Assembly (NCBI RefSeq): GCF_026571515.1
Contig: NW_026856458.1
Location: forward strand, 62,001 to 126,000
Length of the DNA stretch: 64,000 nt
Direction: 5' to 3'
Source: Ruditapes philippinarum
Lineage: Eukaryota
The position numbers and the translations under genes are program-made. Positions 4,832 to 57,252 of the stretch are shown here, piece after piece. The notes under the pieces were generated by a model. The model made no database searches, was not told the DNA's origin, and saw only the letters and a program-made list of their open reading frames with translations. Numbering within the stretch: the first letter of the stretch is position 1; the number at the start of each line of letters is the position of its first letter.

Positions 4832-5017
4832 TCCTAAAGAAAGCCAAACATGGAAAAACATAAATTTCCATCAGGCCCGCTTTAATTGAGCCTTTCATGG
4901 ACGACAGTGCAAGCTACTGTCAATGCCCTTAGCAGAATTCAACATCTAAACATGAACGTGATGTAATTTATTTGAATGTAGAAACATACGCAGATGAGTT
5001 CATACGGTGGTTGTCAT
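4832..5017 (+). repeat. Multi-hairpin dispersed element, orientation A
   Basis: CAGGCCCGCTTTAATTGAGCCTTTCATGGACG...AGCAGAATTCAACAT...GAAACATACGCAGATGAG; reverse complement of the family seen at 40150-40355. Confidence 0.8.
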
Positions 5018-5744
5018 AAAGTCACGTCTAAATAAGATAAATTCACGTATTAAAATAACTTCATCTGCATTTTTATTATGAGGTGATATATAATATTTTA
5101 AATCATAATCAAATTCATTGTTCATTAATTACTGCAGATATGGATATAATATAATTATCTAATTAAAGAGACCCCCTTGTGTGACATGTTTATTATTTTA
5201 TAAGGCATATAAACTTTAATATCGATATCACAAAATGTATTGACACATTGTATGTAAACCGAGGACACTTTTATAGCCATTTTACATGTTTAATTATTAC
5301 GATGTTGTGTTCAGACAGTCGTACATTTGAAATACGAAGCAGAATGCATTGCTTAAATAAACGCTTATCACGTGCGTATGATTTTATGGCGCGTCAACAC
5401 AGAATAGGTCATATGGCACCGATACAAGATAAAATTGACTAACCTCGGGCATTACAACTGTAAAAGCAACACCAGGGGTCAAAACCACCTCACTTGCTGG
5501 AGCAAAAGAGATGCCTTGACCACTAACGCTTACCCTGCATGGATAAACGGTGGCTGCAATTATTATGCCTCAACCATTTAAGGCAACCTTCGCCAATACG
5601 TAAAATATGGAATTTAGAAAGTGTAAATATATTTATATACATGTTCATATCATATATTGATTCTTTATACAAATGGATATCACTTGAAACACATACTAAG
5701 CAACTTACACTGAATATTACCTTCTCCTAAAAAAAATCCCAGCA

Positions 5745-5905
5745 TATTGTTGACAATACAACAGTCTGAATGATTACACTATCGCAAAAAGCATTCTGTA
5801 TTTCTTGTTCTTGATTGAACCTCTTCTATGTAAGTAGATAAAACGTTTAAAAGAATTCCTATAAAAGACTCAATAGAAAAACACTTTCCATCAAGTGACC
5901 AGGCT
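5745..5905 (+). promoter_or_regulatory. Candidate Pol II core promoter P2a
   Basis: CAATACAACAGTCTGAATGATT, TATAAAAG at 5860-5867, AAAACACTTTCCATCAAGTG; older paralog of P1. Confidence 0.5.
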
Positions 5906-6709
5906 ATTTTGCGCTGGAAATAAATTCCTCTTCTTTTAGAGACGTTAATCAAGAACAATCCTTGAATATATCTTAGTTCACATCTCTTGATGTAAATAAG
6001 TGAGTTGTCGACAAGTTATATAGCAAAGGAATTTACAATTGAATTCCAATATGAATGAACATATTGTGTGTTCTAATTTGCAAATAAAACCAATAATCCA
6101 AGTGACCGATAGAAAATTTTATACAAAGACATCAGGATGTACCTATAGTGTTTATTAAAGTGTGGAGCCTTTAATATTTGAGGCAGATCTTATTTTTTAT
6201 ACTAACCATTTCTTATTATCATCATTTAATCAAAGACCATTATAACAGTCAATCTTTTGAAATATGAAACTATCTAAGCTTATTTTGACAACTTAAAATG
6301 GGCCTTACATCTACGGCATTTAAAATTACTGTTTTTATTAAAACAGTTTAAGATAACCAGTGGCTTTCATAAAACACGTAACATATTATAGTGATCAACT
6401 ATCCACAACTTAAGATAGAGCACATATTCAATTAGAAAGGCGATACTTGCGTTAATTGTTTTATTATCTGAACGAAAGAACACAATTGGATAGAGGGATC
6501 TCAACAAATACTCAAAGGTTTTGACCATTAAATATATATTCCGGCGTTTTTGTTTGCAAATGGTAACTCTCAATTTGATATACATGTAATTTCTAAGTAA
6601 AAACTAAACTAACCGTTTATAAACTATGAGCAATAAAATTTGTTTAACGACCGAATCATGGGTTCAACAATAATCTGAATGTACATAGAATGTAAATCGA
6701 TGTAAGCGT

Positions 6710-6845
6710 AAATGTTGAATTATGCCAAAGCAGTTACCAGGGGACGGCAACTTTCACTTACCTGTACTGTCCACGAACAGGCTCAATCAAACCTAGTCTG
6801 CAACATGTCCAATTTTTATATTTTGGACGTTCTTTAGGGATTCTG
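6710..6845 (-). repeat. Multi-hairpin dispersed element, orientation B
   Basis: AAATGTTGAATT...GGACGGCA...TACTGTCC...CAGGCTCAATCAAACCTAGTCTGCAACAT...TTCTTTAGGGATTCTG. Absent from the paralogous position in unit 2 (~18740). Confidence 0.8.
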
Positions 6846-7599
6846 TTTCCCCTTATTTGATATGTACAACTGTAACACTAACACCAACGTAATTCATTTT
6901 GCTGAATAGGCACCCGATATGATATAATTGTAAAATGCAGTTTTATATCGTCTTATTCATTTGTATAATTATTATTTAAGTTCATCATATGGTTCCTTAG
7001 TTTGAAAGATATTGTTATAACAGTTCCCAGTTCCACATCTCTATGACACGGTTTTCCTCTTAAGCTTTAACAATTCGATTGATATCAACTTTTATGCAAC
7101 TTAAATGATATTGTCGTGAGACTGATCAAACAGTCGTTAATACAAGTTTTGATGAGTACAAAGACATAATGCTAGATAAAGTGAGTCTTATATGATTCCC
7201 TTGTGAACTTTTATAATATCCAACTATAATAATCATTATGACAAAGGTCAATATAAAGGCAAGAAAATGAAAGTTGCCGATACCAGAACTGACATTTTTG
7301 TCATATATATATTTCAATACATGACGTTAATACTAATTTACAGATTACAGCATACAATATGCCACAAGAAATTTATAGCAAACTAAATTAAATAAGGTCA
7401 CCGAATAGTGTTTTATTTTTCAGAAAATAAAATATTGTATTATTTGAAATGAGACTTGGAAAAGCAAATTTTGTTCAGTTAGAGTTGTGAAAGCGTTTGT
7501 AGTTTGCTTTTAAGGAGATTTACTTTAATAAGCACATAGTGCTTCCGTCAAAATCCATTGCGTGTATTATGTTCGTATGGTTGTTTAAAAATCTAGAAA

Positions 7600-7672
7600 C
7601 AAAGTGATCCCTCGGAAGCATTAATCACAACAAAATTACAAGAGAATTGCAGACTCGGTTTGATTGAGTCTG
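7600..7672 (+). repeat. Variant fragment of the multi-hairpin element
   Basis: AAAGTGATCCCTCGGAAGCA...TGCAGACTCGGTTTGATTGAGTCTG; closely matches 42770-42840. Confidence 0.75.
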
Positions 7673-9119
7673 TATGTATAATTACAATATATGCAATAAA
7701 ATATGTTTAAACCAAAGCTTTTTGCAAGACATTCCCAATTTCTTTTCTAATTGAAACATTTATCTAAATATCATATGCGATATGGTTGATATAACTCAAG
7801 TTAAGCCTATTATATTTAATAAGTCATGGTAAAAATGAATGATAAAATTTGTTATAACGAATGATTCAAACAGGATTTAGAATGCGTAATTCTGAATAAT
7901 ATCTTTAAATTTTCATATAATTTGAAGTGCACAATAACAGTGCATGATTTTTACAATTTTTGTCAAACAAACTTTTTTTTTCTTTGGTGATATATTTAAT
8001 ATGTTGTTTTAACTGAATTTGTCACGAATGCTTACAATCAATGAAAAAAAATGTTTAATTGTAGATTTCCAAACAAGCGTGAAACATTTAATTACAGTTT
8101 ATTGTACTCTTAACTCAATAGGATATCTATTACATTGTTCATAAGATCTGAACTTAAGTCAGATTGCCTTAATCATGGAGAGTTCTTATCCTTGTCTATA
8201 ACATTCTCCATTCAGTTTCAACAATCATTAAATAGCAGGAATAATTGGAAAAGGTAAGCGTGAAACGTTTGCCAGACTCAATCATTTATATATACACGAG
8301 CTTCATATAAGTGTGTCTAATAAGACAATACTTTTTGCAAATTAGAAAAGTACAAAAGTGTTAAATAAACCAATGGAATTGCTAATAATAAGACACACAA
8401 TCTTGATTGGAAATCTCAACACGAAAGTAACAATGGATAAATCTTTCTTTGCACATGAAAGGAATCTACCTGAATAAACGTAAATGAAAATAAAAATAGT
8501 ATATTTGTAAATACATTGACGGTCTTTCAAACTATCATAATGTTCTTTCTAGGTCCAATATAAAGTTATGTTTTCATTTTCCTAATGAGAAATTAAGTAT
8601 TTGTCTCTCCTATGGGTGCTCTGGGTACATTCAAAAACGTGTAGTTTTTTCCAGACAAATAGCGATAGAAACGAATAAGCTTTTATCTCTCATAAATAAT
8701 AAATATTGTTTAAAGGGTTACCAAATGTCAAGTTAAGAAACTCTTGTAATATCAAATCTGTAGAATTCTTACAATGTCAACTTATACATTGGATTTCAAT
8801 TATAAGAACAAATTGTAACGAAATTACATTTGAGATATTTATCCCTACATAATAACTCTGAACAGCAATTATCCCCCTACCCCCAAAAAAAAAAAACAAT
8901 ACAAATTGAAATGACAGTTTCGGAAGAGTTCCCTTTAAATTTTGTATTTTACTCAAACCGTTTAATCTGTAAATGGTAAATGAATGAGTATTCTGTCTAA
9001 TGTGTTTTAATTTTGTAACAAATGGTATTGTATGTCAGGGAAATGATTCCTGCAATAGATGGTATTACAGGAGATCTAGGAGATACGCATATATAAAACA
9101 GCTTCAGAGGATTACAAAT

Positions 9120-13392: not shown

Positions 13393-14589
13393 TTCAATAT
13401 ATAATTTTCAATAATATTGCAATTCTTCCCAAACTATAATGATTTTTTTACATAACCGAAGACCTATACATTTTCAAAGAAATAAATTGACTGCTCCATA
13501 GGTTGTTACGAATTTATTTTATGAAATTTTAAGCTCAATAGGATTATAATTACCTTGTGTATTAGATTTCAATTTTAAATTAGTCAGATTGCCTTAATCT
13601 TGGTCGCTCTTTCGCTCAAAGTTCTTTTTTATTCTTGCTATTTGATTTCAACAACCATTAAAGGCACATTCTGCCTCGGAAATAAATGAATATCTTTACA
13701 TATAGAAAGGGCAAACATTAGTCTAATTACGTTTAAATAATTGATTAAGAGAATGTTAGATGGTTCTCAACTGAAAGAAATAGCGCTATATGTCATGAAA
13801 GTAGCAAAATGTAAAGTAGTGTGTTGAGACCATACAAAAATGTATATCACTGTAACTGAAACTGTGCCAAAAGGCAACATAATTAGGCAAAATATGGTTC
13901 AAATGACCAACCAGTAACCTTTTAGAAACGAAAGCAGGGCTTAAAAATTAAAAAGCTTTTGATTACAAAATTAATTCATTTCTGAGGCATGATGGGCCTT
14001 TAAAAAGCAAGAATAATTAGAACCGATAAGCGTGTAATGTTTAACAGACTAATCCAGTTGTACGATCTTCTAACAAATATGTCAGATAAGAACATATGGT
14101 TTTTTTTGAAAATGAGGAAATTAAAAACGTGCTTTATATTGGTATCTAAACAAATGAAATTGTTTATGCTGAAACACAAACACTTTGTCAATGCATAATC
14201 TTTAGAAATATCACCAAACTGTTGAACTTTTATCCCTGAAAGTTCTTTTATTTCGTTGTCTTCCATTTTATGCGTTATGTTTCAACAATCATTAAATAAC
14301 AGGAATAATTGGAACCGACTAGCGTGAAATGTTTACCAGAATAAATCAGTTATAAGTACACGAGATTATTATAAGTCTGTCAGATAAAACAATACTGTTT
14401 GTAAATGAGGACAGTAAAAACGTGTTTAACATACAATAAAACAAGGAAAAAAACAGGTAATACAAATTAGACAGAACAAATTCTAGCATTGCATAATATT
14501 TACAGAAGTTAAAGATATAATATGTTTATCTTGAATTCTTTTACAGAAATGTATTGAAATCTAGCAAACACTGCAAAATATGATAATAC

Positions 14590-14740
14590 TGCAGGCCCGC
14601 TTTGATTGAATTAAGGTTGTTCATGGGCGGGAGTGGAAGCTACCGTCAACGACCATGAGCACCGGCTTAAGCAGAAAGCACGAAAATGATTCAATTTGAA
14701 TTTAGAAACATCCGCAGATGTGTCCATACGGCGGTTATCT
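14590..14740 (+). repeat. Multi-hairpin dispersed element, orientation A
   Basis: GCAGGCCCGCTTTGATTG...CTACCGTC...GCACCGGCTTAAGCAGAA...AAACATCCGCAGATGTG. Confidence 0.8.
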
Positions 14741-17519
14741 TAAAGTCACGTCTAAATTAAACACGTTCACGCATTTAAGGTCATCTGCATTTTATTATGA
14801 GGCGATATATACTATTTTAAAGCATAATCAAAAGCATTGTTCATTGCTTATTGCAGATATGGGTAATTATATAACAATATTTATAGAGACCCTCGTGTGA
14901 GACATATTTATTATTTTATTAGCTTAATAAACTTTAACAACGATATCACAAAATGTATTTGTCACATTGTACATGAACTGGGAACAATTTGAAAGCCATT
15001 TTTCCCATGTGTATAAAGAACGTACGCTTGAAATAAGAAACAGAAAGCATTGTTTAAATAAACATTAATCACGTGTGTTTGCTTTTACGGCGCGTCAGAT
15101 GGTACACAAATGTAAAAGCAACAACAGGGGTCAAACCACCTCATCTGGTCGAGCAAAGAAATGCATAGACCACTTACGATTATCCCGCATGGAAAAACGG
15201 TGGCTGCAATTATTATGCCTCAACCATTTAAGACACCCCCACCCCCAAATATGTAAAATATGGAATTGAGAAAATGAAATATTCTTACATATTACATGTT
15301 CATATCACCTTTCAATTAAGGTGAGTCGTTTTCTGTTGAAAAAACAAACATTTCTTTTCAAAATGAAGAATGAACACAATTGTGTAATTATTTAAATCAA
15401 AACGTTGTGAATTCCGAAGTTTCACAGTCAGTCGTATCAAAAATAGACGTATTTATACCTAACGATACGGAGGTTAGAAATACATGTATATTCATTCACG
15501 TCAGTCATCTGGATTGAGATTCTAGTTTCGATTGATGAAAGAGAATTAAGGTTGTAATGATACATATCTTTACTTTTATAAAAAGTCTATACAATCAGAC
15601 TGAAAGAGGGCGCATTTGTTTGTCCCGTTGTTTTGTGTATGCAATTATCTAACGAATTATTAGTTATGACAGCGTTTTAGAAAATCCGTTTGCTGCCATT
15701 CCCTTTTAAATAAAATTAACATCAATAAGAAGATAACATTTAACTAGTTTTTGTTTTCTAGTGAGAAATGTCGAAATTTGTAAATTTGAAAATATTTTGT
15801 TTTGGCCATACTTAAAGTGTCGGTCAACGTAACTAAACTTTATTCAGATGTGATTTCATATTCAAAGGAAAATGACGTAAATTTATAAACTCTTTGGCTA
15901 CAAAAATTCATTTGCTTTTGAGACGATTTGCATTTAGAAATATTCAATTGCGTTTAAAATTTATATTTTTTTCTCAAATTCCAACGAACACCTGTTTGGA
16001 CAAACGATTTGAATTCATACTTTTCTCACATAATTTGAAAACAACGTTTTTACAATCTATTGAGTTAATTAATTTGTTAACAAGCGATTTTCTCGCTTGT
16101 ACTTTATCTCTTAAAATAACGTTTTATTTTCTTTTTGGTGTGAAAAAAATTACCAATAAGCCTTTATTAATATTGAGGTGTAAATGTTTGAATTGGTAAC
16201 TACTGCGAAGTCAATGTGTTTTTATTTTAAACATCTGATTCAATTTCATACTCATGGTGAATTTGTTAAAGTTTTGAGTGTGTTGTCGGCCTATCCTTTA
16301 ATAAGACATCCTTAATACAATAAGATAAAATTTAAAAAAACGACACAAATCCCGTATGAATTAATGTATGCGTTTAGTACTGTGAGTGTACGATTTTACT
16401 CATGACTGAAGTTTTAACTTTCAGATCCATTAATGTCAAAAATTGCATACTATAAGAAATGTTCGTCTTCCACAACCACAAACAAACAAATATCCTTTAG
16501 AATCATAAAAAGTACAGTTGCCTGGTTAACACAGATGTATAATATTGTAAAAGTTTATGAGTTATAAAGAAAACAACTTAAAATCTATATTTCAAAATTA
16601 AAATTTTGATAATTGGAAAGATGGGAGAAAATAAACAGTTTTAGCCGTCTATAAACATAAGGTTAAATACAATTGCTGAACGCAAAATAAAAATAAAAAC
16701 TTTGGTTAAATTATTATATACTACGATATGTTATTTTGTTTAAGAGAACCACATTTTCCAGATGTTAAACATTAATTACACGTATTTCTTCATTTTATTT
16801 AGAATAATATATTTTCAAATTATTTCAAACTAAATTACAGTATTATGCTTTGTCTAGGCGTTTAAATCTATTATACGTATTTCTTTATTTTTCATAAAAA
16901 AAACAATACAACATGATAATGATAATTCAATAATTTAATTCAATAATAATCATATTTAAGGTTAAAAAACGCATCATATACATGTAAATTACTTTGCCAT
17001 TACGACAAGCAACGTAAAGAAGTTTTAATAGTCACTGGCAAGAATGAAAGCAAAAATATGCTGTTAACCTTCAGAAAAGGCAACACACGTTTTAATCTTC
17101 CTATTCAGGAATATGCGTGCACGTGTCCTATAATTTTGAGACAACAGGCAAGAGATAAAAGTAAAAAATCTTTCATCTCAAAAACTTTTATCTCTCATGA
17201 ATAATAAATATCGTATCATCATGCATATTAAATTTGTGTCAAATGATAATGTAAGTAACATTTGAAGTTTTATTATGCATTACAAGTATTTTCAATCGTT
17301 ACACAATTTTCATCTTGTATGTTTCTGTTTGTTTTTATTATAAAGTCAGAAAAAGGTGATACAATCTCATTTATCTATTAAGATTTGGTAGTTGAAGGCT
17401 GTATACTGTTTGATAGATTTCCTTTATGCAAGAGAATTCAAATCAAAACTCCGTCTAGAAGATACCCCTTTAAAAGTCGGCTGATCAAATTTCTCCATAA
17501 ATGACCGACTACGTATCCC

Positions 17520-23335: not shown

Positions 23336-23354
23336 GAAATAGAGGAAAACCGAG

Positions 23355-23538
23355 TCCCTTAAGAAAGCCCAGCATGGAAAAACATAAATTTCCCTCAGGC
23401 CCGCTTTGATTGAGCCTTTTTCATGGACTGTAGTTCAAGCTTCCGTCAACGCCCTTAGCACTGGTTTAAGCAGAACACGGACGTGATGCAATTTGAATTT
23501 AGAAACATGCGCAGATGACTTCATACGGCAGTTGTCAT
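23355..23538 (+). repeat. Multi-hairpin dispersed element, orientation A
   Basis: Unit-3 equivalent of 4832-5017. Confidence 0.8.
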
Positions 23539-26500
23539 ATAGTCACGTCTAAATTAGGTACATTCACGTATTAAAAGAACTTCATCTGCATTTTATTATG
23601 AAGTGATATATAATATTTTATAGCATAATCAAAAGCATTGTTCATTGCTAAATGCAGTTATGGGTAATTATATGTAATCTATATATAGAGACAGCCTTGT
23701 GTGACATATTTATTATTCAGTCAGCCATAAAAACTTTAACAACGATATCACAAAATGTGTTGTCACATTATATGTGAACCGAGGACACTTGTAAAGCCAT
23801 TTATCATTTTGAATTATTACGATGTTGTGTATAGACCATCGTACGTTTGACATACGAAGAAGAAAGTTTTGTTTAAATAAACATAAATCACGTGAGTTTG
23901 GTTTTACAGCGCATCCACACATTATATGCCATATGGCGCCGAAACATGACAGATATTTTTTACTTACCTCTGGTATCACTTTAAAAGCATCACCAGGGGT
24001 CAAAACCACCTCACCTGCTGGAGCAAAAAAGATGTATAGACCCCTTACGATTACCCCGCATGGATAAACGGTGGCTGCATTTATTAGGCCTCAACCATTT
24101 AAGTCAACCCCGCAAATACGTAAGTATGGAATTGAGAAAATGTAAATTATATATTAAAATACATGTTCATATCATCTTTCAATTAAGGTAAGTCGTTTTC
24201 TGTTGGAAAATATGTCTTATTCAGTAGATACAATACAAATTTCACCATAACATATTTGTAAACAAACGAGCACACGTCAGTGTTTTTGGTTAAATCTTTT
24301 GTTATTCAAATGAAAGGTCAGAGTAGGGATCTGGCAATTGTCATTTCTTAATCTGATAATTAGAATTAGATAGATCAAGGATCTATGATTTCCAAAGTTT
24401 CACAGGCGTATTAAAAATGGACGTATTTATACCTAACGATACGGAAGTTAGAAATACAATCATTCACGTCAGTCATTTGGATTGAGATTCTAGTTACCCC
24501 TGATGAAAGACAATTACAGATGTAATTAAACATTTCTTTACTTTTATGTTAGCGTCTAGACAATCAGACTGAGAGAGGACGCATTAGTTTGTCCCATTGT
24601 TTTTTATGTATGCAATTATCTAACGATTTGTTAGCTATGGCAGCGTTTTAAAGAAATCCGGTTACTGCCATTCCCTTTTAAATACAATAACATCAATAAG
24701 AAGAAAAATGTTACAACATTAAACACATAACTAGGTTTGGTTTTCTTGTGGAATTTGTGAATTTGCAAATATTTTATGTTTTGACCATATTTTAGTGCCG
24801 GTCAATGTAACTAAACATCATTCCGATGTGATTTCATACTGGAAGTTTAATAACGTAAAATTATAAACTCTTTGACTGCAAAAATACACTTTCGTTTTAG
24901 AAGATTTGAATTTAGAAATATTCATATGCATTTAAAATATATATATATTTTCTCAAATTCAAACGAACACCTGTTTTAAGTTTGCAGAAACAATTTTCAT
25001 TAATCCCTTCCTCACGGATTTGAAAACATAATAATTAAAATCAATTGATTTGATTAATTTGTTTACAATCAATTGTCTTGTTTGTTCTTAATCTATTACT
25101 GCCGACAAGCAGAAAATAACGTCGACTTTTTTGTGTGAAACTAATTATCAATAAGGTAATATTGTCAGTGGGTAATTACGACGAAGTCATTGTGTTTTTT
25201 TTTCAAATATCTGATTAATTTTCACACACATGGTGATTATGTTAAACTATTGAGTGTGTTGTTGGCCTTACCTTCAAGACATCCATAATACAATCAGAAA
25301 AAAATAAAATGTAGCAAATTCCGTATAAATGAATATATACGTTTAATACTGTGAATGTACGATTTTACTTACTACATAATTACTAAACTTTTCACAATTC
25401 AAATTCATTAATGACAACAATTTGCATACTTAACAAACACATTTCTGTGATAATTATAGCGTTTTTAAGTTTTATGATATCTTCAATGAAAAAAACAAAT
25501 AAAAAAGTACCAAAAAAAAAACAAAAAAAAAACAAAAAACAAAAACCACAACAACAAACAGACAAATACTTAGAATACATACAAATATGTATTTTGTTGT
25601 TTTCTATACATGTTATATAATCCTTTAGAATTAAGAAACGAACAGTTTCATTGCAATCCAGTTATGTGACTGAAGTATGCTTAACCTATACATCTATGTT
25701 CAAAATTATTTATGTTATAGATAAATAGTAACAATATAAGTCCATTTATTTCGTTTACCTTTTAGTAACATCATCTTAAACTGTGCTCATCATTTTTGAG
25801 CGTACGAATTTAATTCATATTATATATTGTCTGGTTAACAAATGTACTACTAGACGCACTGACTTCTTATCCCTCATTTATCTACAATGGTCAAATAGAT
25901 TAAATACTAGTCATTAAACATAAGCCATTAGATTAACCGTTGACTTCAGAGGAATTACCATTTTAATTACAATTGTCGGCCAGTACTGTTTAATATTTAC
26001 ATTTATAACTTTGTAAAAATAACGTTAAAATGCATCATTTTTAATTTACATTATTGCTGACGTTTGTGAATAAGTGTGTTGTGTTGTCAGACATTCTCAT
26101 TTTAATACAAGTCATTTTAGGAAGATAACTAAATATACGGAAGAAGAGGTAAACAATTGTTGTTTTTTTCTATAAACCCTGCGTTTATTACTATTGCTTA
26201 ACTCAATCAATAGACTATATTTATATTACGAGATGTTAAGAGATGATGTTTAAGGGAACCACATTGATGTAAAAACTTTTATACGTACTCCTTCATTTTA
26301 TCAAAAACAATATAAATCATACAATTGCAATATAATATTATGTCCTTAAAAGGAAACCACATTTCTTGATGTTAAAATTTGTTATAGATAGCTACTTCGT
26401 TATTCCTTCATTTTATCAAAAACAATATAATAACGTTATGGTACAAAAACACTGTAGATTTTATGCCTCTGACACTTACGTTTCAGGAAAAGATATTGCA

Positions 26501-27219
26501 AAGTGTTTTGTTTTTCTCTTGGAAAGCCCGTCCCATATATTGCCTTCTTTATTAGATTTCTTTTGCAGATTATATGAAAAAGTTGCTTTAAAGAATACAA
26601 TAAAACAACCTTTCCATTCATCACGCTACCAATCATTTCATCGATGAAATCCTATTTCTTATTTATAAAATGTTTTAAGAAAAAAAAAGAGTTAATTTGA
26701 TTGTGTTGTAGCTTAAGATTAGCATGGAAAATGAACATGAAATAGTTCAACAATGATGAGTCAAACATGACAACATTGACGTTGCTGAGATATTACAGTT
26801 TGGAAACGGAAGTCAAATAATTGTATTGAATTTTGTCGTTCAACTTTAGCATTATTGACAGTTCTGGTTTCAAAATTCATATTTTCTTCTATTGTTTTAA
26901 ATAAAATGTTATGTACTTAAGTTTGTGTAAGGGAGCTGGACGGTAGCTTACACTGACAGGTTTCCGCGAACTAAGCAAGCGCCACATTAAATTTTGCTAC
27001 CATAGGTGTTCTTTAAAGAAGAACATTTTTCGTTTTTTGCAAAAGTAGCACTTATTGCAGACTGTAAGATGCTGTTCTACATTTGCCTCTCTGCGTCCTT
27101 GTTAATAAATCTAAGTTATTCAACTAAAATGATATAACGCGAAAATGAGTGATCTTTGAAATAGTACATCTCAACAGAAGAACAAAATTATTTTTTCATC
27201 GTCTTATTACATACATATA

Positions 27220-31870: not shown

Positions 31871-31995
31871 TGTTGAATTCTGCTACAGCCGGTGCCAGAT
31901 GGCTTTGACGGAAACTTAAACTTTCCATTTCCGTCCATGAAAAGACTCAATCAGACCGAGCTTGCAACATTTTCAATTTTCAATTTTGTCGTTTT
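31871..31995 (-). repeat. Multi-hairpin dispersed element, orientation B
   Basis: TGTTGAATTCTGC...CCGGTGCCAGATGGC...GACGGAAA/TTTCCGTC stem...GCAACATTTT. Confidence 0.8.
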
Positions 31996-38620: not shown

Positions 38621-40047
38621 AATTTATAATACAGCAAGCATCATTTTGTGGATAAAAAGTAAGATTTTTTCATGAATCGACAGTAGCCATGCTTTATTTA
38701 GTTTACAAAATGATTGTTTGAATTATGAAAAAAAAAACTTTCCAAATGCATATATACTGTTGATCAGTTAAAACCGTACATAAAATAAAAGCATATTATT
38801 TTGTTCACGATCATATTATTCTTATAACGTACAATGTTCATATGATTGTGTTAGTTATAACAGCGTCTTTCTATAACACAACCCTTTCGATAATTTTCCA
38901 CGCGCTAATGGAAGCAATACGAATTAAATGTTTATATATTGTATAAAATTTTGTATTAGATAGTTTAATTGTTCTGTAAAAAACTAAAGAAAGCTGATAC
39001 GTCTGATATTTCGTGAAGATATATCCATTCAAAATTAAACTCTAAATCAACTTTAAAAAACTGAAACAATTTATATATAATTATCTAAATTAAAATACAA
39101 AACTGGTATCACTAAATGTGAAGGTTTTGTTCAGAGGTGATTTATTTTACTGGTTTTTAATCATTTGCTATTCCATAACACTATGTAAGTAATGTTTGAA
39201 TTAGAAATTTTTATGTTCAAATATGTTAGCAATATTATTTAGTTAAAGCAGAACAAAGCAGGCATTTTATTAGAATAATACATTAAAAAGATCCTCTTAA
39301 TACATAAACATCATTGATAAACATGACACATATCTAGAACATATTGCAAAGGTAAATCATATACACTTAGATATATATTTAATATTTAATACATAAAACA
39401 AAGATAGTACGTTGATAAGTACTGTAGCATTAGATTATCAGATCAATAAATGAATTTAGAATTATAAATGTTTATGTTATATATTTGCAGATTTTTTTTA
39501 GAAATGGTTTTATTTTATTTGAAGAACTAAGTCAATCTAAATTTAAACACAGACATAATAAAATCGTTTAATAAATCTATTTGAAAATAACAATGACATA
39601 AATAAAAAGTGGAATTTATCTTCAATATCTATAATGTTACAAAATAAAGAAAATCTTTTGTTTCATAGTAAATATGAACATATGACATATTAAGTATTAG
39701 ACTATATGTACATCGTGGTTAGAACATAATCTAAACTATTTTGATCACTCCTTGAAATTTGTTTCAGAATCCTTTTTTACGGATGTGAGAAAGAAGTTAA
39801 AAAAAATCTAACATAAAATTGATTCCAGTCGTAAAATGGTATCTATATCTTAAAGGGTATTAACATCTTAAGAATGTTCAAAAGCACTTAATCAAGTTAA
39901 ACATAAAAGCTATCCAAATGGAATCCATTTGCATTCCATAATATATCTTTAATATACTTTCAGTTAAAATCATCATACTGCGAAAAAATACTTCTATATT
40001 TTCAAAAAATATGATGTTGAAAGCTATCATCCATAATTGAAACTTGA

Positions 40048-40360
40048 TTTAGTTCCGCCCATTGTTTTCTCGTTTAGGGCACACGCTTTTTAATTTGGGG
40101 ACTATACGCCTCTTTTCATGGAATGGCACAGAAGTGTCACATTGAAGGTTCCATGATAACCGCCGTATGAACACATCTGCGGATGTTTAGGGATTCAAAA
40201 ATTTACTATTTATCGTTTAAATGTTGAATTCTGCTTAAGCCGGTGCTAGGGGGCGTGGACGGTAACTTGCACTTTCCAGTACCGTCCATGAACAGGCTCA
40301 ATCAAACCGAGCCTTCAACATTTTCAATTTTGCCGTGTTGGGCTTTCTTTAGGGATTCTG
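40048..40360 (-). repeat. Multi-hairpin dispersed element, best-preserved long copy (orientation B)
   Basis: Closing stem AAATGTTGAA (40219-40228) with TTCAACATTT (40314-40323); stem TGGACGGTA/TACCGTCCA (40256-40288); stem AGGCTC/GAGCCT (40294-40314); upstream ACATC-TGCG-GATGT hairpin and TTTAGTTCCGCCCATTG. Confidence 0.85.
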
Positions 40361-41329
40361 TATTTATCTATTTTGTGGTCAGTAAAACACGGTTTTGGCG
40401 CGTAAAACAAATTGTTAAATAACGAAAAGCGGCTTTGTAACACAAAGTGTATATCAACATGCGTATCAACATCGGAACAGTTTTGGCAAATGTACTGAAA
40501 TGCTTCCATCTTTGAACATCTGCAAGTCATACTCTGTTGAAAACACATCAGCGAGTGGCAGCAATTAAGTGAATGTTTATTCTACTGATAAAAGATTGTA
40601 TGTCGTGTGAAAAAGAAGTATATAATGGAATGTTTTAACTATGTTTTCTCTGTCCATTTTTTCAATGTCTCCAGCTCCATAATAAGCTACACAATATCAT
40701 GATATTTCACTATATCCACCGCCACATTTATATTAACAGAAAGTCCAAGATGCAGACAATGACTTGTGCGTGTGCAAAGAGGATGTAGTTTCAGTATATG
40801 TCGTAAAGAGTGTACCGTATGGATATGCACCGTTTTTAAGACGAATTGCAAAACATCGAAGCTATACGCTTATTACATGGATAAAGTATTTTTCATTCGC
40901 ATATTTTTTGGATAAAATTCCGTTTTTCAAAACTTACAAATTAATTGAAGCAATTTCATATTTTTTTCAATTTGACAATACATTTTTTAAAAATGTTTTC
41001 TTTCAAATTAATTTTATTCAAAATTTTACTCACGTTTTTTCTTTTTATTCATCCTTTATCATTCTAGGTTAAAAGAAAACTGTTTATAATCCAACACTAA
41101 TTTTCGTCGGCATCATTTCGGCTGAACTTTCAGCCTTATATAAATCATACATTTGATTCATGTCACAACCGCTGCAGAACGTTTCCTTGTTTAAAACGAG
41201 TTTAAAAGGCCATGAATTTTATTTAACAACCATCCAAATCGTTATTGTCTGTAACCCATATGCCTGTTACACCATTTATTTCAAACAAGATTTAATTTCC
41301 GAATAAAAGTCATTATATTTACAAATTTT

Positions 41330-41995: not shown

Positions 41996-42033
<38 letters not shown>

Positions 42034-42584: not shown

Positions 42585-42920
42585 ATTTTGTTTGGGTTTT
42601 ACGTCGCAGCAGCATTATAAAGGTCATATGGCTAATTTCAAGGTTTACTGAAGTAAGGCCAAAGGTGTCCCACAATGCATTATATCAGGCACAAATAAGC
42701 ATGAACGTATAAGTACAAGAGAAAGCAGGCTGGATACCTTCCTTTTATGACAGAATCCAAAGTCTGGAAATAAAGTGATCCCTCGGAAGCACTCATCACA
42801 ACAAAATAACAAAGTGCAGACTCGGTTTGATTGAGTCTGTCCATGAGGGATATAGTACTTGATGGGATTCGAGCCCAAATCAGTAAGTGGAAAATGGTCG
42901 GAAGGCAACGACTTTAACTA
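42585..42920 (-). mobile_element. tRNA-derived SINE (Meta-domain-like), interrupted by a ~95-bp insertion
   Basis: Reverse complement of the family at 62740-63010 (TGGGTTTTACGTCGCA, GCTGGATACCTTCC, GAATCCAAAGTC, GGATTCGAGCCC). Foreign sequence at ~42765-42862. Confidence 0.75.
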
Positions 42921-43819
42921 TGGATTTTAGATATCAAATAAATGTCGATATTAAATTATTTCAGCTAATTAATGACAAACAATTCAGATTTTACAGGTCT
43001 CTATAAATCGCAAGACAGGGTATAGTGATTCCGTTTATATTCAGTAACTGTGATGTATCATTCAGAAATATTTTTTAAAATAATTTCTATTTTACTTTTT
43101 TAAAACATTCAAATAGTCACTATTTTATTCTAATAACAGTCAAATAAACAGTGTACAGAAATAAACAAACAATACGAAACAGGAAAAAAAGTACAAATGA
43201 TACGATTTGAATTTAATAGCGACATCATGGTTACTTTCTAATTTAGTTAAATTATCATTAAAATGTATTATGCCTTAAAATGGTGAAAAAATGCTTCCTT
43301 AGAATTCTGACAAGATTATTCACCAAGGTATATTAATTCATCTTTCCTTAAATATTTTGTAACAGCGATTTCTATAGGGACTGTTTTATTACTATTTGGT
43401 TAAATATTAATGAATTTTGTCGACAATATTACATTTACTTACAAAACAAAAATAAAAAAGTTCTAGAAGTGGAATGAAAAGTAATACTTTAAAATCAAAC
43501 AACATCGTAAATCAAAACTTATTAGGGGTACTTTTTAAATGAGCATGTTAAAGATTAACACTAGTTGATGCAATTTAAATTCCATGCCCCCTAACACCGT
43601 CATTTAAATAAATAATAATTGTAATTTACATATAGAGCTATGCACCTGTATATCTAATGGAGGCAAAATTACCACAATTTTTCCATCTTAAATGTTACAA
43701 TGCTTTTCATGAACAAGCTCAATAAACTTATAAAACCCGAATCTTCGTTGATGTCAATGGCTTATGCTAAAATTTTTTAATGTGTTCGGCATTATCTCGG
43801 CGGCAGATCCACATTGTCA

Positions 43820-44010: not shown

Positions 44011-45389
44011 AGTATTTTAGTTTGAAGTACTCCTGGGCTCCTTGCCGCTGGTTCTTGTTGCTGGGTCGTGTGTGGGTTGCGTTCGTTGGACGCCGCCTTT
44101 CCTTGTCGATCTTCTTTTATCAGGTTTTTCTACTGAACTAAGCGGGCGTACGTTGATAGATCATTTTTATGCATGGGAATTATACGTTGGACGACAAGTA
44201 ATTTTATAAGAACATATAATCATATCATTTATATTTCTAGCAATGCCATCAAATATCTAAGCTTCAATCAGGTCAATGTACAGTTAATCTAGGCTAAAGA
44301 TACTGATACTATAAATTGGCTTTCATTTATGGATGGAAGTTTGAAATGATTAGTTCTACATTAATTCTACTTAGACTTGTACAATAACAATGCATTACAT
44401 TAAATATACAAATTGGATAATACAGATCTCATCAGCATATATATATATATATATCTTATAAAACCTATTAAACCTAATCAATTTTAATATATATATTTGT
44501 TCTGCTCAAAGGTTGTATTACATGTTTAAATTGAATTTACTTCACTACAGTATTGGAACAGTACCTAGAAAGCAAAATCACAACACAGAAAAAGTTTTTG
44601 TCTCCGAATCTTACATTTTTCATTCAATATCGTATCCTTATCGGTGAGACATCTTAGATTGTATTTCGGCGGATGAAGGAAAAGACGAGATTTTTTTATT
44701 TAATCATTTAAGCGCATTGTCAGTTATATACCGGAATACGGTATCCGGTGTAAGTGCTGCAACACTATTCTTTTTTTCAGACTCTCGTAACAAAATTTTA
44801 CATTTCGGCGGGTTTGGATTTTTTTACTTGTTTTGTTTCTAATAAATTTCCAGAATCTTTTTTTAAGATAATTCAAAACAGTTTTTAACCATATCAAACA
44901 AACAGCTATATAAATGGGAAAATAATGTTAATTGGAATCTTAAAGGTTGCCAAACATGTAAATATTAAGAGCTTTGCATGCTTAGTTTCTTGAGGGCAGT
45001 CGTTTATGCAGCCGAGAGCACAGGCTTTGGAAAAATACTCCATTCAAACATGAAAATGGTATTTCAGTTAAAAATGTTTAAGCTTTGTGTTAATATGAAG
45101 GTAACAACGACATTCTGCCTGTTTTCAAAATTTATCATTAATACACAAACACGTGAAAAAATTAATCTTATACAATAGTTATCACGAATATACTGCATGT
45201 AAACCTTATTTTATTTTTCAAATGTTATACATATTATGTAAAAATTGCAATTTGTTGCACTAAAAACAGTCAAGTCAAGTCAAGTCAGAACTATACCCCC
45301 CCCCCCCCCCCCCCCTCTCCAAAAAATAAAATAATAATAATCTTTCTTTATTTCTTTCTTTTTTCGTTCTTCTTTTTCAATATTTAAAA

Positions 45390-45826: not shown

Positions 45827-45829
45827 AGT

Positions 45830-49267: not shown

Positions 49268-50160
49268 AACGTTTCGGCACAAGAGAGAAATCATTTCACT
49301 GCTTAAACGTCAGTGTCGATAACAGCTACTTTAATGAATAGTATCAAGGCGAGAACGAAAGGATTAATAAACTTTAAATCGTTTTACTAGAATTGATTAC
49401 AAGTATTCTGGATGCAGGTAAACATGTCCATCAAGATATAAATCGTGTTGATACGTTCATATCGACCATTGCCTAAAGGTTTCATCGGAAAGAATTTAAA
49501 TGTTACCGATACCTTTCAAGAAGAAATAAGAAAAATAACACAACATAGTCAATCTTTGGTAAAAGTTGTAACTATAAGTAACGAAATAATTACCAACGTT
49601 CTACGGATAGTTTGTTAAGATAACTTAAATATTCGATAATATGTTGTTTTAAGTTTATTATACAACTTTTGTAGATATTTTACTTGCATAGTTTGTATTA
49701 TTGGTTAATTTCAAATGAGGATATATTAGTCTTTGCTAATCCACGTTTTTTCGTTGGTACATATGAACTATCATTATATTATTGAGCAATATTTCACATT
49801 CATAATGTTTTTTCCACAAACGCGTAACATGTGATTCTTATTTCAAAAGTAAAAGCATTTGGTTAAAAATATAATCGTCATTAAAAACTTATCTTAATAG
49901 GTGGTTGTCGGGATTTTTCCTTCGTCGTAACTGTTTTAGAAAACGAAAAACAACTTACTTCAAAACGGAATAATGTCAAACTTTGCTATGGTAATAACAA
50001 GTAACAGAAATTCATAATTCTTCAATAGATTTGTTTTCTTTTGTTGTAATTTAATAAAAAAATTGCTTTTTAGCGTAAAATTCTGAGACGAAGTTCTATC
50101 TTTTACGTTATGGTTTGGATTTTTTATTCATTGTATTTTAAAATGATGCAATTTGAAAGA

Positions 50161-50266
50161 AGATTGAGCCTTTCATGGACGGTACTTAAGTTCGAGCTAC
50201 CGTCCACACCCCTTTAAGCAGAATTCAAGTTTTAGCTACACATGGTAAATTTTGAATTTAGAAACA
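50161..50266 (+). repeat. Multi-hairpin dispersed element, orientation A
   Basis: GATTGAGCCTTTCA-TGGACGGTA-(altered loop)-TACCGTCCA...TAAGCAGAATTCAA...TTTGAATTTAGAAACA. Confidence 0.8.
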
Positions 50267-51184
50267 GACCTTATCTAATGTCGCGTGTCTTGAAATAACG
50301 TTTTATAACTAATTGTCGAATAAAAGAAAATCAAGTTTCCCCTCGAAATTGTAATTAAAAAAATATGCATACAATCAACTGGATTTCTGTTAATATTAGA
50401 AAGCATTAACATTGAATTAACTTGAATTCACTTCCCACAATAAAACCAGATTCTTATACATTCTACAAACGTTATTATTTTTCATAGAAATATTACAGTT
50501 TTTACTTGATTTCAGTAGACAAGATAATTCTGTATTGATTTGTTCAAAACAAAACATAAAGCCTTAACATTTTACATCGTCAAAATATAATTATATTTGA
50601 TCTTCATCTAAAAGAAAACTAATTGAAAACATGAGAAAAACATATTAAACATACTATTTGCTTTTATGTTTCATACTCATTATGCTTAGCTAGTATTTGC
50701 TAATTTCAATGTATCTTAAACAAGAATAACATAGTTATTTTGAGGTATTCAATGCAATAGCGTAGCAACACTTGTATTTGACTTTGGCCCTATAATTAAT
50801 TAAGCTTAAAATGTTTTCATCATTTTCGAATGTGCCTTTATAACTATCAGATACAAAGCGTTTATTTACATTTATTATAGATATGTATAATGAATTCGAC
50901 ATTTTTTTCTGAAATAACCATGATGTTTGTTTATGATTTTACTAAGAGCGAGAGTTATTATTCGCTTTTAGTCTGTCGACTGCAACGAATTCTATCAATG
51001 TAGACAGTGCAAACACGGATCAGGTGGACGGTACATGCAGTCGATGATCTATTTGGTTTGCTAGTTTTGAATTTCTTTCTTACAATATATGAACGATGTT
51101 GTCCATATTGAAAGATAAAGATGTTCGTTAAATATTTATAGCGTGATAAGGGTAAATTTCGTGCGTAAATATATGAACATGTTC

Positions 51185-51300
51185 ATTTAATACTTAATCC
51201 GGTGCTAGGAGGCTTGGGCAGTATCTTGCACATACCAGTACCGTCGATGAACACGCTCAATCAATCCGAGCCTGCAACAATTACACTCTTGCTGTGTTGA
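51185..51300 (-). repeat. Multi-hairpin dispersed element, orientation B
   Basis: CCGGTGCTAGGAGGC...CTTGCAC...CCAGTACCGTC...GCTCAATCAATCCGAGCCTGCAACA. Confidence 0.8.
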
Positions 51301-51711
51301 ACTTAAACAAATGATTCTTTCTTTTTTTTCTCCTAGTATATTTGTCAGACGCATATCCTGTCTATAAATAAAAAATAAAATCTATGTTCAAATGTGTCAC
51401 CATCATAATATCAAATCTAAACCATCCTTAAGCACTTTCTATTTGAAGTGAGAGAATTTAATGAAACTTATTTGGAAGTTTCAATTTAAGATATCGCTCA
51501 CGGGAAAATTTCTTTTATCTCGAAATTGATAACATGTGCAGAAGATAGGTTCAGGAAAACAGGTGAACTAGGGATATGCATATTATAATAGTTAGTTTTT
51601 TTTGACAGTGTACAGACTATACTTCACTTCATGGTATATTGTAATTATTACTGTTCAAATCGTCTGGTTAGTCGAGATCAGTGATCCAATTAAAGTTGTC
51701 ATATTTAAGCA

Positions 51712-51810
51712 TTTAATGTCGATTTAGCCGGTACTAGATGGCGCGGGAAGCGTTTATATTTACTTTCATGAAAAGATTCAATTCAACTAAATGTAGGATT
51801 TTCAACTTTT
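51712..51810 (-). repeat. Multi-hairpin dispersed element, degraded (orientation B)
   Basis: AGCCGGTACTAGATGGCGCGG...CATGAAAAGATTCAA. Confidence 0.55.
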
Positions 51811-52189
51811 TGTTTTCGTTTTCCTGGAAGATTGCCCTTTTTCAAAAATTATATTAAACTAAAGTTAATAAGACTAGACATATATAAATACCCTATATTT
51901 TGTAGTACAACAATAGTAGAGAGTTACATACTTCTTAATAATACAGCAGACAAATGACATTCCTCACAACTAAGAACTGTACGAAATCCCATTTAATATG
52001 CTCTAGCCGTCGGGAACAATTTGCGTGTTTCACGAAAAAGTTCATGATATCTATTACGAAAGACAAGTTGAAGACAAAGTGACAGAATATCGCTTGCGTA
52101 CAAGACACATTTTCTTCGAGCTTTGTTTGATCTTTAATTGAAAACAAATATAAGAAAATGTCAACAACTTAGTTAAACAAAAGTGCAAC

Positions 52190-52295
52190 TGTTGCAGGCT
52201 CGATTTCATTGAGTCTGTTCTTGGAGGGGAATGGAAAGTGCAAGTTACTGTCCACGGTCCCTAGCACCTGCTTAAGCAGAATTTAACATTTAAAA
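52190..52295 (+). repeat. Multi-hairpin dispersed element, orientation A
   Basis: TGTTGCAGGCTCGATTTCATTGAGTCTGTTC...GGAAAGTGCAAGTTACTGTCCAC...CTAGCACCTGCTTAAGCAGAATTTAACATTT. Confidence 0.8.
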
Positions 52296-52894
52296 CAGGT
52301 TCTACTCGGGAAATAGTCAAATCTTATTTCGTTGACACAAAAGTATTTATTGGAAGTGAATGGAAAGCTTTTAAAAAATGTTCATCATCTTTTTATAAAT
52401 CAGGCTATAATGAGATTGTAAATGTTGAAAAAATTTCTTCACGACTAATCAATAAAACAAATATTTTCATGAATTTCATTCATAAAAAAATTGTTTTATT
52501 GATTTTTGTGTTGACGAAATTTAATCCTAAGACAGAGCAATTTAATTAAGTTGTTGCATCGAAATTTTGAAAAGTTACAAGAAATATCAATGCACGTTCG
52601 ATTTTGGCACCACGATTGTATAATTTATAGTTTTAATCTGATTTCTATGCGGGAAACTTTGAAAAGAATCATATAAAGATAATATAAAACTGTCTTTAAT
52701 ATGGTAACAGTCCTTCCAATCACTCTTAAAAAGCGCATTACAAGATGTCACTATCATACATCAAGAAAGTACAAACAGTGTTATAATTTATATAATTCAA
52801 GAACACAAGAGCTTAGCTACAAAACAGATCTAATTAAGATTATCAATCATTTTGTAATGAGCTTATTAAGTTATTATTTATGTTATTGTCATTT

Positions 52895-54057: not shown

Positions 54058-54179
54058 AGACATATAACATATCTTTCAACTTGAATAGTGCGTAAAAGAT
54101 GTTTTTGTTTCTGTACAATTTGTACATAAAAAGCGGAGCACAACCTCAAATGCTGATTTTTTTTAAATTCAAAATGAAT

Positions 54180-54295
54180 GAATGATGAATTCTACTTAAG
54201 ACGGGACTATTGTGCGTTGGCAGTAGATAGGGACATACTGATCATGAACAGGCTCAACCAAACCAAGCCTGCAAGATATATATTTTTTGCCTTTA
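54180..54295 (-). repeat. Multi-hairpin dispersed element, degraded (orientation B)
   Basis: TGAATTCTACTTAAG...CATGAACAGGCTCAACCAAACCAAGCCTGCAA. Confidence 0.7.
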
Positions 54296-54807
54296 TCGGC
54301 ATTGCTCGGTCGCATTTTTATCCACGGTGACATTGTTGTTTTTTCTTCAGATATATAATATTAAGAAAAAAAGTAGTTATCAAAACTTGAAAAAAGAATA
54401 TGATGTAAATTCTCAATACTGCGCTGGTCGCAATGTCTGATAAATCAATCTAACAGATTTGATGAAGATATTATATCAATCTCTATTTTTTGGAATTATA
54501 GATGACATCTCAGCAGGACATTTGAAATAAAATAATATGGAAAAAGCAGTATAAACAACTCAATTTACTTACATGGCTTAGATTTGTTATACATTTTCCA
54601 AATATAAAATTTGAGCATGATATATTTTTAAACTGTTTTGACACCATTGTCCTTTACAGGTTGATGCATAATCATAACAATCTTTCCTGTTTCGGCGTCA
54701 TATGACATTAACTGTGTTGCTACGCCGAAAATCAAGCAAAACAAACAAACAAAAACTGGTGTTTTAGCAAGCAAGTGTAATTTCGCAAAGACATACTAGT
54801 AACTTAC

Positions 54808-55518: not shown

Positions 55519-55551
55519 CAGCTCGTGTTTTCCAATAAGTAAACATCTGCT
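55519..55551. promoter_or_regulatory. 33-bp block identical to 49235-49267
   Basis: Exact match at nearly the same distance from the ATG (609 vs 616 bp). Confidence 0.5.
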
Positions 55552-55699
55552 TAACATTTCGACACATGAGCGGGAAAACCTTTCGATGTATCAAAACAAG
55601 TGTCCATTACATCTCGTTTTATGAATAATACCCAGAAAAGCAGGATTAATAAGTAATGAATATATTATTGTATTTACTTTTCTTTATACACGATATTAA

Positions 55700-55890
55700 G
55701 TGGCGGCGTGCCCGAGTGGTTAACGCGTCGGACTAGTAGTTTAAGGATTGAAAGTCACCTGGGTTAAAACCCCGTCAAGGGCAAGCCGTAGTTTCCGCGA
55801 GCTACATTCATTGCGTAGTACAGGTTGGTCCCAGAAACGGATTCGAGAGTGTTTCCAACTAAATTGAACTAAAATAAATAAGTATAAACT
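55700..55890 (+). mobile_element. tRNA-derived SINE (CORE-like)
   Basis: A-box-like GTGCCCGAGTGGTTAA, degenerate B-box GGGTTAAAACCC, tail AGTACAGGTTGGTCCCAGAAACGGATTCGAGAGTG. Confidence 0.7.
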
Positions 55891-56373
55891 ATTCACGATT
55901 TTCAATAAACTTAAGATAAATTAATATTTGTTAAACATACAGGAAATACATCTTTTGTACAATGAATGTTTATGCAAAGGATAAACTTTTTACTTATTAC
56001 AGTGAACGTTAAAAAATTGGACATTATTTCAATATGTTAATACTTAAATTATGATAAGGTACATATTCGACGCAATTTACATACATGGTTCAAGTTTGTT
56101 ACACGTTTTCCAAATATAAAATTGTTCGCTTGATATATTTCTTTTCATTTCATTCAATGTCGCAGACTTCATTTAATCCCATGCGCGCGCAACTAATTTG
56201 ACTGATAAGAAATTGATACAAGTATTTCGGCTCTTTCATCTTTATCAATCTATCTATTTATATGCAAATATATACTTTTTTCTAATGAATACTTATTAGA
56301 TGAATGAAACAAATAAGTTAATAATGAATGCTTTTAGATTGGTAACCTCAATCACGTATTCTGAAATTTGATA

Positions 56374-56594
56374 TATGAGCCGCGTCACGACAAAACCAAG
56401 ATAGTGCGTTTGCGACCAGCATCCGCGCAGTCTGATCAGGATCCATGCTGTTGGCTTATCAACACTATTACAAGTGGAGAAACTGACAGCGAGCAGCATG
56501 GATCCTGATCAGACTGCGCGGTTGCGCAGGCTGGTCTTGATCCATGCTGGTCGCAAACCCATTATGTTGGTTTTGTCGTGACACGGCTCATATA
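56374..56594. mobile_element. Palindromic MITE
   Basis: ATATGAGCCGCGTCACGACAAAACCAA ... TTGGTTTTGTCGTGACACGGCTCATAT. Confidence 0.9.
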
Positions 56595-56699
56595 TACTTA
56601 ACTGATAAAATAGTCTACGGCGCCGCTCAAAAAGGTAAAATAATTTGCTGGGTAATTATAGGTATTATTGGCTGTACGCTTTAATGACAGAGCATTTAA

Positions 56700-57020
56700 A
56701 TTGAAACGCTGTGTTTTCTAAATATAACAAAACATAAATAGTTTCACAAATGATTCTAGACCTTTTGAAACTGATCGCACAGAATATAAAATGACTTTAT
56801 TGCTTTGAAATTTCCATTTTATTTAGTTCTGCCCATTGTTTTCTTGGCCGTACACACTAATGACAGTGCACGAAAATTTAAACATTGCTTTTTCTTAATA
56901 TAATAAAACATCAAAGTTTCTAAACTGATTCTCAACCTTTTGAAACTGATAGCTCAGAATATAAAATAACTTTATGGCGTAGGAAATCCATTTCCTTTAG
57001 TTCCGCCCATTGTTTTCTTG
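56700..57020. repeat. Local direct duplication (~180 bp, two copies)
   Basis: TGATTCT...CCTTTTGAAACTGAT...CAGAATATAAAAT...TTTAGTTC(T/C)GCCCATTGTTTTCTTG occurs twice. Confidence 0.75.
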
Positions 57021-57252
57021 TTCAAAACTTAGGCTTTCTTTTACTTATGAAACCATATGCCACTTTTCATGGAATGGCACGACAGTGTAACATTAAATGT
57101 TCAATGATATTCGCCGCGTGTTAAAATGTTGAGTTTTGCTTAAGCCGGTGCTAGCGGGCGTGGGCGGTAAATTGCACTTGCCAGTACCGTTCATGAACAA
57201 GCTCCATCAAATCTAGCCTGTAACATTTACAATTTTGTCGTTTTGGGCGTTC
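56996..57252 (-). repeat. Multi-hairpin dispersed element, long copy (orientation B)
   Basis: Colinear with 40048-40345 from TTTAGTTCCGCCCATTG to AACATTT; internal deletion of the ACATC/GATGT hairpin. Confidence 0.85.

Follow-up and report, generated by a model that had tools for sequence, protein, structure and literature searches.

What is the cluster of hairpins that recurs at least 14 times, in both orientations, in 64,000 nucleotides (nt) of the Ruditapes philippinarum genome (contig NW_026856458.1, positions 62,001 to 126,000; the whole stretch is hereafter called the window)? A preliminary description of this DNA had left it between a structured non-coding RNA (ncRNA) family and a hairpin-dependent mobile or cis element. 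We assign the hairpins to two abundant repeat families, A and B, which are very probably non-autonomous passengers of Naiad, a Penelope-like element (PLE). Judging by the covariation of its stems, the hairpin cluster is a conserved four-way-junction RNA fold, or cloverleaf, near the 3′ end of the element. The best reading is that A and B are retrozyme-like elements without a hammerhead ribozyme, in which the cloverleaf likely processes RNA.

A 23-nt word from the core occurs 11,750 times in the 1.41 Gb genome, compared with 0 occurrences of a control pattern, and the window copy near 40 kb is 95–96% identical to 39 other copies among the matches listed. Alignment of the flanks resolved two tandem monomers, A of 630 nt and B of 283 nt, which have the core and a 5′ block in common; the unit of ~105 nt proposed earlier is instead the 3′ part of one or the other monomer. 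The window contains 16 matches in 64 kb versus 15 in 190 kb (19 arbitrary 10-kb stretches drawn from long contigs met in earlier searches, not a random sample), an approximately threefold difference, and copies are clumped, with 14 of the 19 stretches having none. The repeat is clumped and genome-wide, and the window lies at the denser end of its distribution. While this density could speak for a host ncRNA or a regulatory family that is confined to the locus or enriched there, such a family is largely refuted and hardly credible: exact core words are found in thousands genome-wide, the window copies are decayed, three of them represent one duplicated insertion, and two are polymorphic relative to their paralogues. 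The idea of a structured ncRNA family with locus enrichment is not supported; what the window holds is a transposable element of high abundance.

The window copies are decayed passengers, mostly 3′ pieces of elements A and B. Those at 4.8, 14.6 and 23.4 kb are a single old insertion within a diverged threefold segmental duplication, and those at 6.7 and 7.6 kb are missing at the paralogous sites, where no target-site duplication (TSD) was seen; since these sites are empty, the two copies show insertion and hence mobility. The duplication itself spans window positions 1–25437 (73–84% identity, period ~8–10 kb), and a quick translated comparison of it revealed no clear conserved exon.

The fold was assessed across six families, comprising A, B and four further families from contigs of other hosts (C–F). 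Each family entered with a single representative (for D, E and F a composite of the more intact helices of two to three copies, which favours pairing); on this basis, pairing holds in 143 of 144 stem cells, and both partners have changed in 14 of 24 base pairs. In ten unedited copies, 98% of the cells pair, versus 42–47% when the partners are slid. RNAalifold recovers the same four-way junction from the copies. Identity across the six families is 92% in the joining block and 93% in the last loop, and 53–59% in the arms of the third helix (P3). Folding is better for the Naiad-sense strand than for its complement in all four cores compared and in both monomers. In every family, the fold stops ~50 nt short of the fixed 3′ end. 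Overall, the fold has the pattern expected of a catalytic or recognised core.

The stem substitutions quoted in the preliminary description are present in the sequence. The change to CAGACTC/GAGTCTG was rightly seen in two copies, but both belong to family B, and it counts as one family-level event instead of two; the G-U-compatible changes near 57.2 kb also exist, but they are plain transitions and weak evidence. A short second helix and the proposed GGTGC/GCACT pseudoknot vary on one side only. The pseudoknot is fully compatible in five families and retains 4/5 pairs in family F, but lacks any two-sided change, and the two are putative features compatible with the aligned sequences.

Families B–F measure ~270–290 nt. 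Scanning metagenome contigs with a pattern yielded 45 matches, of which 44 were copies of families C, D and E, presumably on contigs from host DNA, and one (L203) was a chance match; these three families were retrieved with a search pattern that itself included the invariant block. Family F was found with a pattern that omitted this block, yet carries the same block. It resides in a bacterial assembly titled Candidatus Thiodiazotropha, which we take to be a lucinid clam symbiont. One bacterial symbiont assembly (G001; L212, L217–L220) includes contigs with animal-type repeats that are apparently host contamination, and when 151 related bacterial genomes were screened with the RNA model, matches came solely from the assembly that seems to contain host contigs. 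Viral contigs yielded no match to two patterns, two of three pattern matches in GTDB were chance hits inside bacterial genes, and a pattern for further variants of the fourth helix (P4) returned five mutated A/B copies from the clam's own genome.

Fragments of reverse transcriptase (RT) beside several copies led to the likely helper, a full-length 4.26 kb Naiad (L151:2597-6856, in G000:C7813). It has a GIY-YIG-type region N-terminal to the RT, DKA and YLDD motifs, in-frame TGA codons at the conserved cysteine positions described for clam Naiads (following the criteria in the consulted part of PMC8557442), and a SECIS-like match (6093–6154, 31.6 bits, just under the cut-off), and by these sequence features is of the selenoprotein type. 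The reading frame of this copy also has a break and TAA stops; the 3′ motif of the element is very similar to a sequence from the PMC8557442 supplement. Precise head-to-tail tandems of entire Naiad were observed in locus L140. The 5′ end of Naiad is identical to A at 91 of 104 positions and to B at 61 of 79, and the 3′ ends are alike by eye only, complemented by a common helix between the 5′ and 3′ ends. This helix occurs, with differing sequences, in A, B, C, D, F and Naiad, and was equalled in 0/300 base shuffles for A, B, D and Naiad, in 2/300 for F and in 3/300 for C. Furthermore, Naiad sequence beyond the shared ends was present in 15 of 50 A/B loci (the set after dropping 10 overlapping loci) versus 1 of 57 arbitrary chunks, a comparison made without correction for general repeat density or other repeat families. 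Given the shared ends, the helix and this clustering, we infer that Naiad is with high probability the helper of A and B. The earlier statement that the element could not be assigned to a known family stands with respect to RNA families, but at class level it can be placed as a non-autonomous PLE tied to Naiad.

The core word was detected neither in the L151 Naiad nor in the published Naiad/Chlamys consensus file, in which line wrapping could hide a match, so the helper is unlikely to use the core as a binding site of its own. Searches of the genome for GIY-YIG and RT recovered one Naiad family, and no second family with the core. The 3′ untranslated region (UTR) of Naiad (L151:6377-6475) has a fold of its own, rich in pseudoknots, with two palindromes and a helix order resembling twister type P5. 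A variant in locus L067 displays covariation in one stem. This fold is twister-like by its helix order.

A and B have a fixed 3′ end and ragged 5′ ends. Where both ends of an insertion fall within a retrieved locus, the 3′ end lies between −8 and +10 of the monomer junction in 85 of 115 cases for A and in 34 of 42 for B; the 5′ ends are scattered. Of these junction-ended insertions, 22/85 for A and 12/34 for B are longer than one unit, and the head-to-tail arrays repeat every 630 or 283 nt, with five or more units in locus L006; families C–F are also arrayed. Inverted 5′-truncated neighbours are common (loci L004, L030, L034 and L039). As the preliminary description held, there is neither a consistent TSD at the flanks of A/B copies nor a poly-A tail, and no A-rich or microsatellite tail was met in the A/B copies inspected; in an informal view of the flanks, neither the 30–40 bp tail extension nor the (TA)n target bias of Naiads was clearly visible. 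In locus L020, an A array splits a Naiad reading frame, which argues for mobility. The idea of a hairpin-dependent mobile element outside known RNA families is upheld, with strong covariation of the stems between families and no Rfam match on the motif.

Hairpins can also form on DNA, and tandem arrays and missing TSDs are known in rolling-circle DNA elements as well, properties that would suit a fold acting on single-stranded DNA in a Helitron/Helentron-type or other DNA-transposed miniature element. We consider this very unlikely in view of the ragged 5′ but fixed 3′ ends, the many inverted truncated neighbours, the retrotransposon-like character of both ends, and a closing stem that is internal instead of subterminal. 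Helentrons and their non-autonomous derivatives (HINE) are characterized by a defined 5′ end, subterminal inverted repeats and a 3′ hairpin; an assignment to this group was rejected, given that the 5′ ends are ragged and the inverted repeat is the internal closing stem.

Arrays are homogeneous. Of 15 listed arrays that contain at least two full units, three are duplicate loci; in each of the remaining 12, adjacent units share 2–18 private variants versus 0.02–2.3 with other arrays. Mean divergence within versus between arrays, duplicates included, is 0.8% versus 4.0% for A and 1.2% versus 4.7% for B. This is compatible with repeated copying of one monomer, as on circular RNA, and multiple copying of one monomer is, on balance, the probable origin of the arrays. 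Folded as circles, the monomers reach z-scores of −6.6 (A) and −4.7 (B) relative to 25 shuffles each. The 5′ truncations of A are in excess at positions 561–580, the 3′ edge of the fold (11/80, p ∼0.004 after correction for 28 bins). Separately, the two loops of the family A hairpins are repeated sites of junction with 3′ ends of Naiad or family B (position ~521 in loci L038, L108 and L033; position ~562 in loci L004 and L039), possibly reflecting a target or template-switch preference.

Could the cloverleaf mimic a tRNA or derive as a relic from a small-RNA gene (tRNA, U1), serving in a SINE-like manner as a polymerase III promoter or as a site for RNase P, RNase Z or the splicing endonuclease? 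By eye, the helix order is tRNA-like, the closing stem is continuous with the last hairpin, the second loop contains GG and the last loop ends in AAACC. However, ARAGORN found 0 tRNA genes in seven loci, and no Rfam tRNA or small nuclear RNA matched the motif at E up to 10, in line with the absence of tRNA A/B boxes reported earlier. The arms of 9–11 and 7 bp and an A in place of the B-box consensus G also speak against it, as does the location of the motif at the 3′ end and not at the head of the element. Homology to U1 was rejected, since local alignments to the host U1 were no better than shuffles in five of five families (p 0.19–0.8). Overall, a tRNA-like or U1-like origin is unlikely. More generally, the window produced 0 Rfam matches at gathering score, the outcome that the preliminary description had left to be checked, and a search at E up to 10 with ten loci and the isolated core gave only miRNA-type and similar chance matches, the better of them off the motif. 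A separate short element with nested inverted repeats at L181:776-887 had a weak model score and is unrelated in sequence.

How might such elements replicate? Animal retrozymes are described as tandem, self-paired and PLE-derived, with RNAs that are cleaved to circles by the hammerhead (PMC7229834; bioRxiv 10.64898/2026.07.22.740005). We propose that the shared ends and the 5′–3′ helix would recruit the Naiad protein, which would start reverse transcription at the ATTTT end, and that arrays would arise when one monomer is copied repeatedly, either rolling round a circle or by repeated jumps. The cloverleaf would cut multimeric transcripts into unit-length, probably circular, templates, whether by self-cleavage or as the site of a host nuclease. 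Because the architecture is that of a retrozyme without the hammerhead, and because a fold of catalytic or recognised type is absent from the helper, RNA processing is favoured over protein binding, and we give the prediction that the cloverleaf does the hammerhead's job a probability of roughly 45%. More specifically, the four-way junction might be a new class of self-cleaving ribozyme or a rearranged relative of twister, in elements that replicate via RNA circles and the Naiad RT and whose copies run into the tens of thousands in clam-type genomes; we regard this stronger version as doubtful.

Several points weigh against the retrozyme-like interpretation. Cleavage, transcript ends and circles are not among the observations. 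A hammerhead was rejected, as A and B have no CUGANGA...GAAA core, the sense strand is negative and Rfam gives no hammerhead match; a relaxed descriptor matched once, on the antisense strand of A only. Twister was likewise rejected by the criteria in the consulted part of PMC5408937, in which P4 has 3 bp and its loop L4 forms the pseudoknots T1 and T2: the last stem here has 7 bp, and the T1 register fails in A and B. The twister loop signature is absent from both, and on inspection of the six families a 4-bp P2 helix with a sheared A-G pair beside the cleavage loop retains only two pairs in register. The Rfam twister models had no match on the core; the same models also miss the twister-like fold of Naiad, revealing poor sensitivity, so the silence of Rfam is weak evidence. 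A genome-wide search for twister-P5 is similarly weak, with 0 matches among the 80 of 14,721 candidates scored. Pistol-like and HDV-like registers, compared by eye with their consensus sequences, do not hold across families. The 5′ truncation points form no single-base peak marking a cut site, and array homogeneity could also be explained by linear transcription of arrays that were already uniform, or by tandem duplication at a later stage. Another Naiad family of the genome may carry the core. The uncorrected clustering count and the search pattern used for families C, D and E, described above, belong among these points, as do two that concern function: a combination of covarying stems and invariant unpaired bases would suit a protein-binding site as well, and for the Anolis Poseidon element the consulted part of PMC11167929 reports hammerhead cleavage to be dispensable for insertion in vitro.

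The latter two lead to an alternative within the same element, namely that the cloverleaf is a protein-binding or positioning module, for the Naiad protein or a host factor, that sets the start of reverse transcription, or protects and localises the RNA, and that nothing is cut. We treat this as a tentative but serious possibility, to which the constant distance of ~50 nt between fold and 3′ end in all families lends itself. In Poseidon, reverse transcription is initiated at an internal stem-loop of the RNA and does not need ribozyme cleavage (PMC11167929), and the truncation excess at A 561–580 suggests that the fold exists on the template. On the other hand, the single helper found is without the core, and the ends shared with Naiad suffice to account for recognition. 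Reads of run X24, labelled RNA-Seq, have equal strands, continue into unlike sequence in 71% of cases and have loose ends at GATC sites; the run looks like a restriction-ligation (Hi-C-type) DNA library, not RNA.

Within the window, a covariance model trained on ten intact copies recovered all 14 copies named in the preliminary description, with scores of 19–109 bits, and added two (57941 and 29499), while a profile search gave 19 matches of at least 12 bits and 0 in the reversed sequence; the traces suspected near 26.9 and 43.6 kb were recovered at low score (Table 1). The window also contains two inverted arms of ~680 bp, 90% identical (60076–62669), possibly a foldback or MITE-like element, and tandem arrays at 12334–13185 (145 bp units), 33805–34130 (136 bp) and 56668–57020 (175 bp). 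The 145-bp array may resemble the internal repeats of bivalve Helentron-type elements.

Table 1. Copies, core elements and traces in the window, with the positions reported by the covariance model.
Feature	Position	Strand	Covariance-model position	Remarks
Youngest copy, 5′-truncated family A (monomer ~294–630)	40039..40373	+	40219	Fixed 3′ end ATTTT; 95–96% identity to 39 other genomic copies among the matches listed
Four-way-junction RNA core	40219..40323	+
Core closing stem	40219-40226/40316-40323	+
Core near-invariant block	40227-40255	+
Hairpin P3	40254-40264/40280-40290	+		TTGCAY loop
Hairpin P4	40293-40299/40309-40315	+		AATHAAACC loop
3′ tail	40324..40373	+		Pairs with monomer ~60–105 in full monomers, like the ends of Naiad
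Old A-type copy	4828..5020	-	4860	Same insertion as 14.6 and 23.4 kb
Decayed A-type copy	6703..6852	+	6710	Absent at paralogous site near 18744
Family B 3′ fragment	7590..7674	-	7640	In stretch missing from paralogous site near 19355
Old A-type copy	14565..14744	-	14593	Duplicate of 4.8 kb
Old A-type copy	23337..23541	-	23386	Duplicate of 4.8 kb
Element trace	26867..27018	+		E 1e-4
Element trace	29493..29645	+	29499	34.9 bits; missed in preliminary description
Element trace	30681..30846	+		E 5e-6; missed in preliminary description
Decayed A-type copy	31842..32025	+	31868	GACGGAA/TTCCGTC stem
Family B 3′ fragment	42760..42853	-	42807
Element trace	43521..43601	-		E 0.014
3′-end fragment of autonomous Naiad (likely helper)	44015..44128	+		87% over 114 nt
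Decayed A-type copy	50157..50269	-	50157
Decayed A-type copy	51181..51324	+	51181
Strongly decayed copy	51698..51808	+	51707
Decayed A-type copy	52178..52325	-	52185
Decayed A-type copy	54125..54307	+	54180
A-type copy, monomer ~290–605	56983..57253	+	57124
Decayed family B copy	57937..58085	+	57941	Missed in preliminary description

Naiads are reported to dominate bivalve genomes without the hammerhead of other PLEs, which left open how their tandem RNAs are processed. The parasite described here is linked to Naiad and has retained, in six families from several hosts, a compact fold with ~25 nearly invariant bases; the 105-nt core is a construct that can quickly be assayed for cleavage. If it cleaves, it would be a new ribozyme class from animal genomes and would widen retrozymes beyond hammerheads; if it does not, the fold would still mark a conserved site of recognition in a retrotransposition pathway that is poorly understood, and an abundant repeat would have been classified. 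Non-autonomous PLEs and retrozymes are already known as kinds. The literature searched, which extended to neither Repbase, Dfam nor the bioRxiv supplements, described neither the motif nor any non-autonomous family linked to Naiad, and a 19-mer of the core had no match in the paper texts searched; the element may be catalogued in Repbase or Dfam as an unclassified repeat.

Of the known systems, tRNA-derived SINEs and the bivalve Helenus elements, as portrayed in the consulted part of PMC10886601, are also short and non-autonomous with a cloverleaf-like segment. In contrast to them, A and B have no detectable tRNA, no intact A/B boxes, no long terminal repeat or primer-binding site and no TSD, and their motif is at the 3′ end of tandemly organised units. 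Twister type P5 (PMC5408937, in part; RF02684) has a similar helix order in its 3′ half, running from closing stem through variable hairpin and 2-nt purine-rich linker to a hairpin with a conserved loop, and the Naiad 3′ UTR holds its twister-like fold in a comparable place; however, the last stem here has 7 bp, the 4-bp P2 and T1 cannot be drawn consistently across families, and Rfam gives no match. A further comparison is with the non-autonomous elements of Chlamys, such as MRC1, and the Naiads themselves, for which the consulted passages of PMC8557442 mention copies that are 5′-truncated, in partial tandem or flanked by inverted truncated neighbours, frequently without a recognisable TSD, and with ends shared with the autonomous family. 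In these passages and the accompanying part of the supplement, non-autonomous partners are described only for Chlamys. Unlike the Chlamys elements, A and B have their clearest shared sequence in the 5′ 100 nt and add a conserved structured core that is absent from the helper. Finally, A and B differ from non-LTR retrozymes in having no hammerhead but a different conserved fold, in the 630 nt of family A, which exceeds the reported range, and in probably relying on Naiad, a clade reported to be without canonical hammerheads. Nevertheless, like the retrozymes described in PMC7229834 and bioRxiv 10.64898/2026.07.22.740005, they are non-coding, form tandems from monomer to multimer, are highly self-paired and linked to Penelope elements, and families B–F are within the 170–400 nt reported there.

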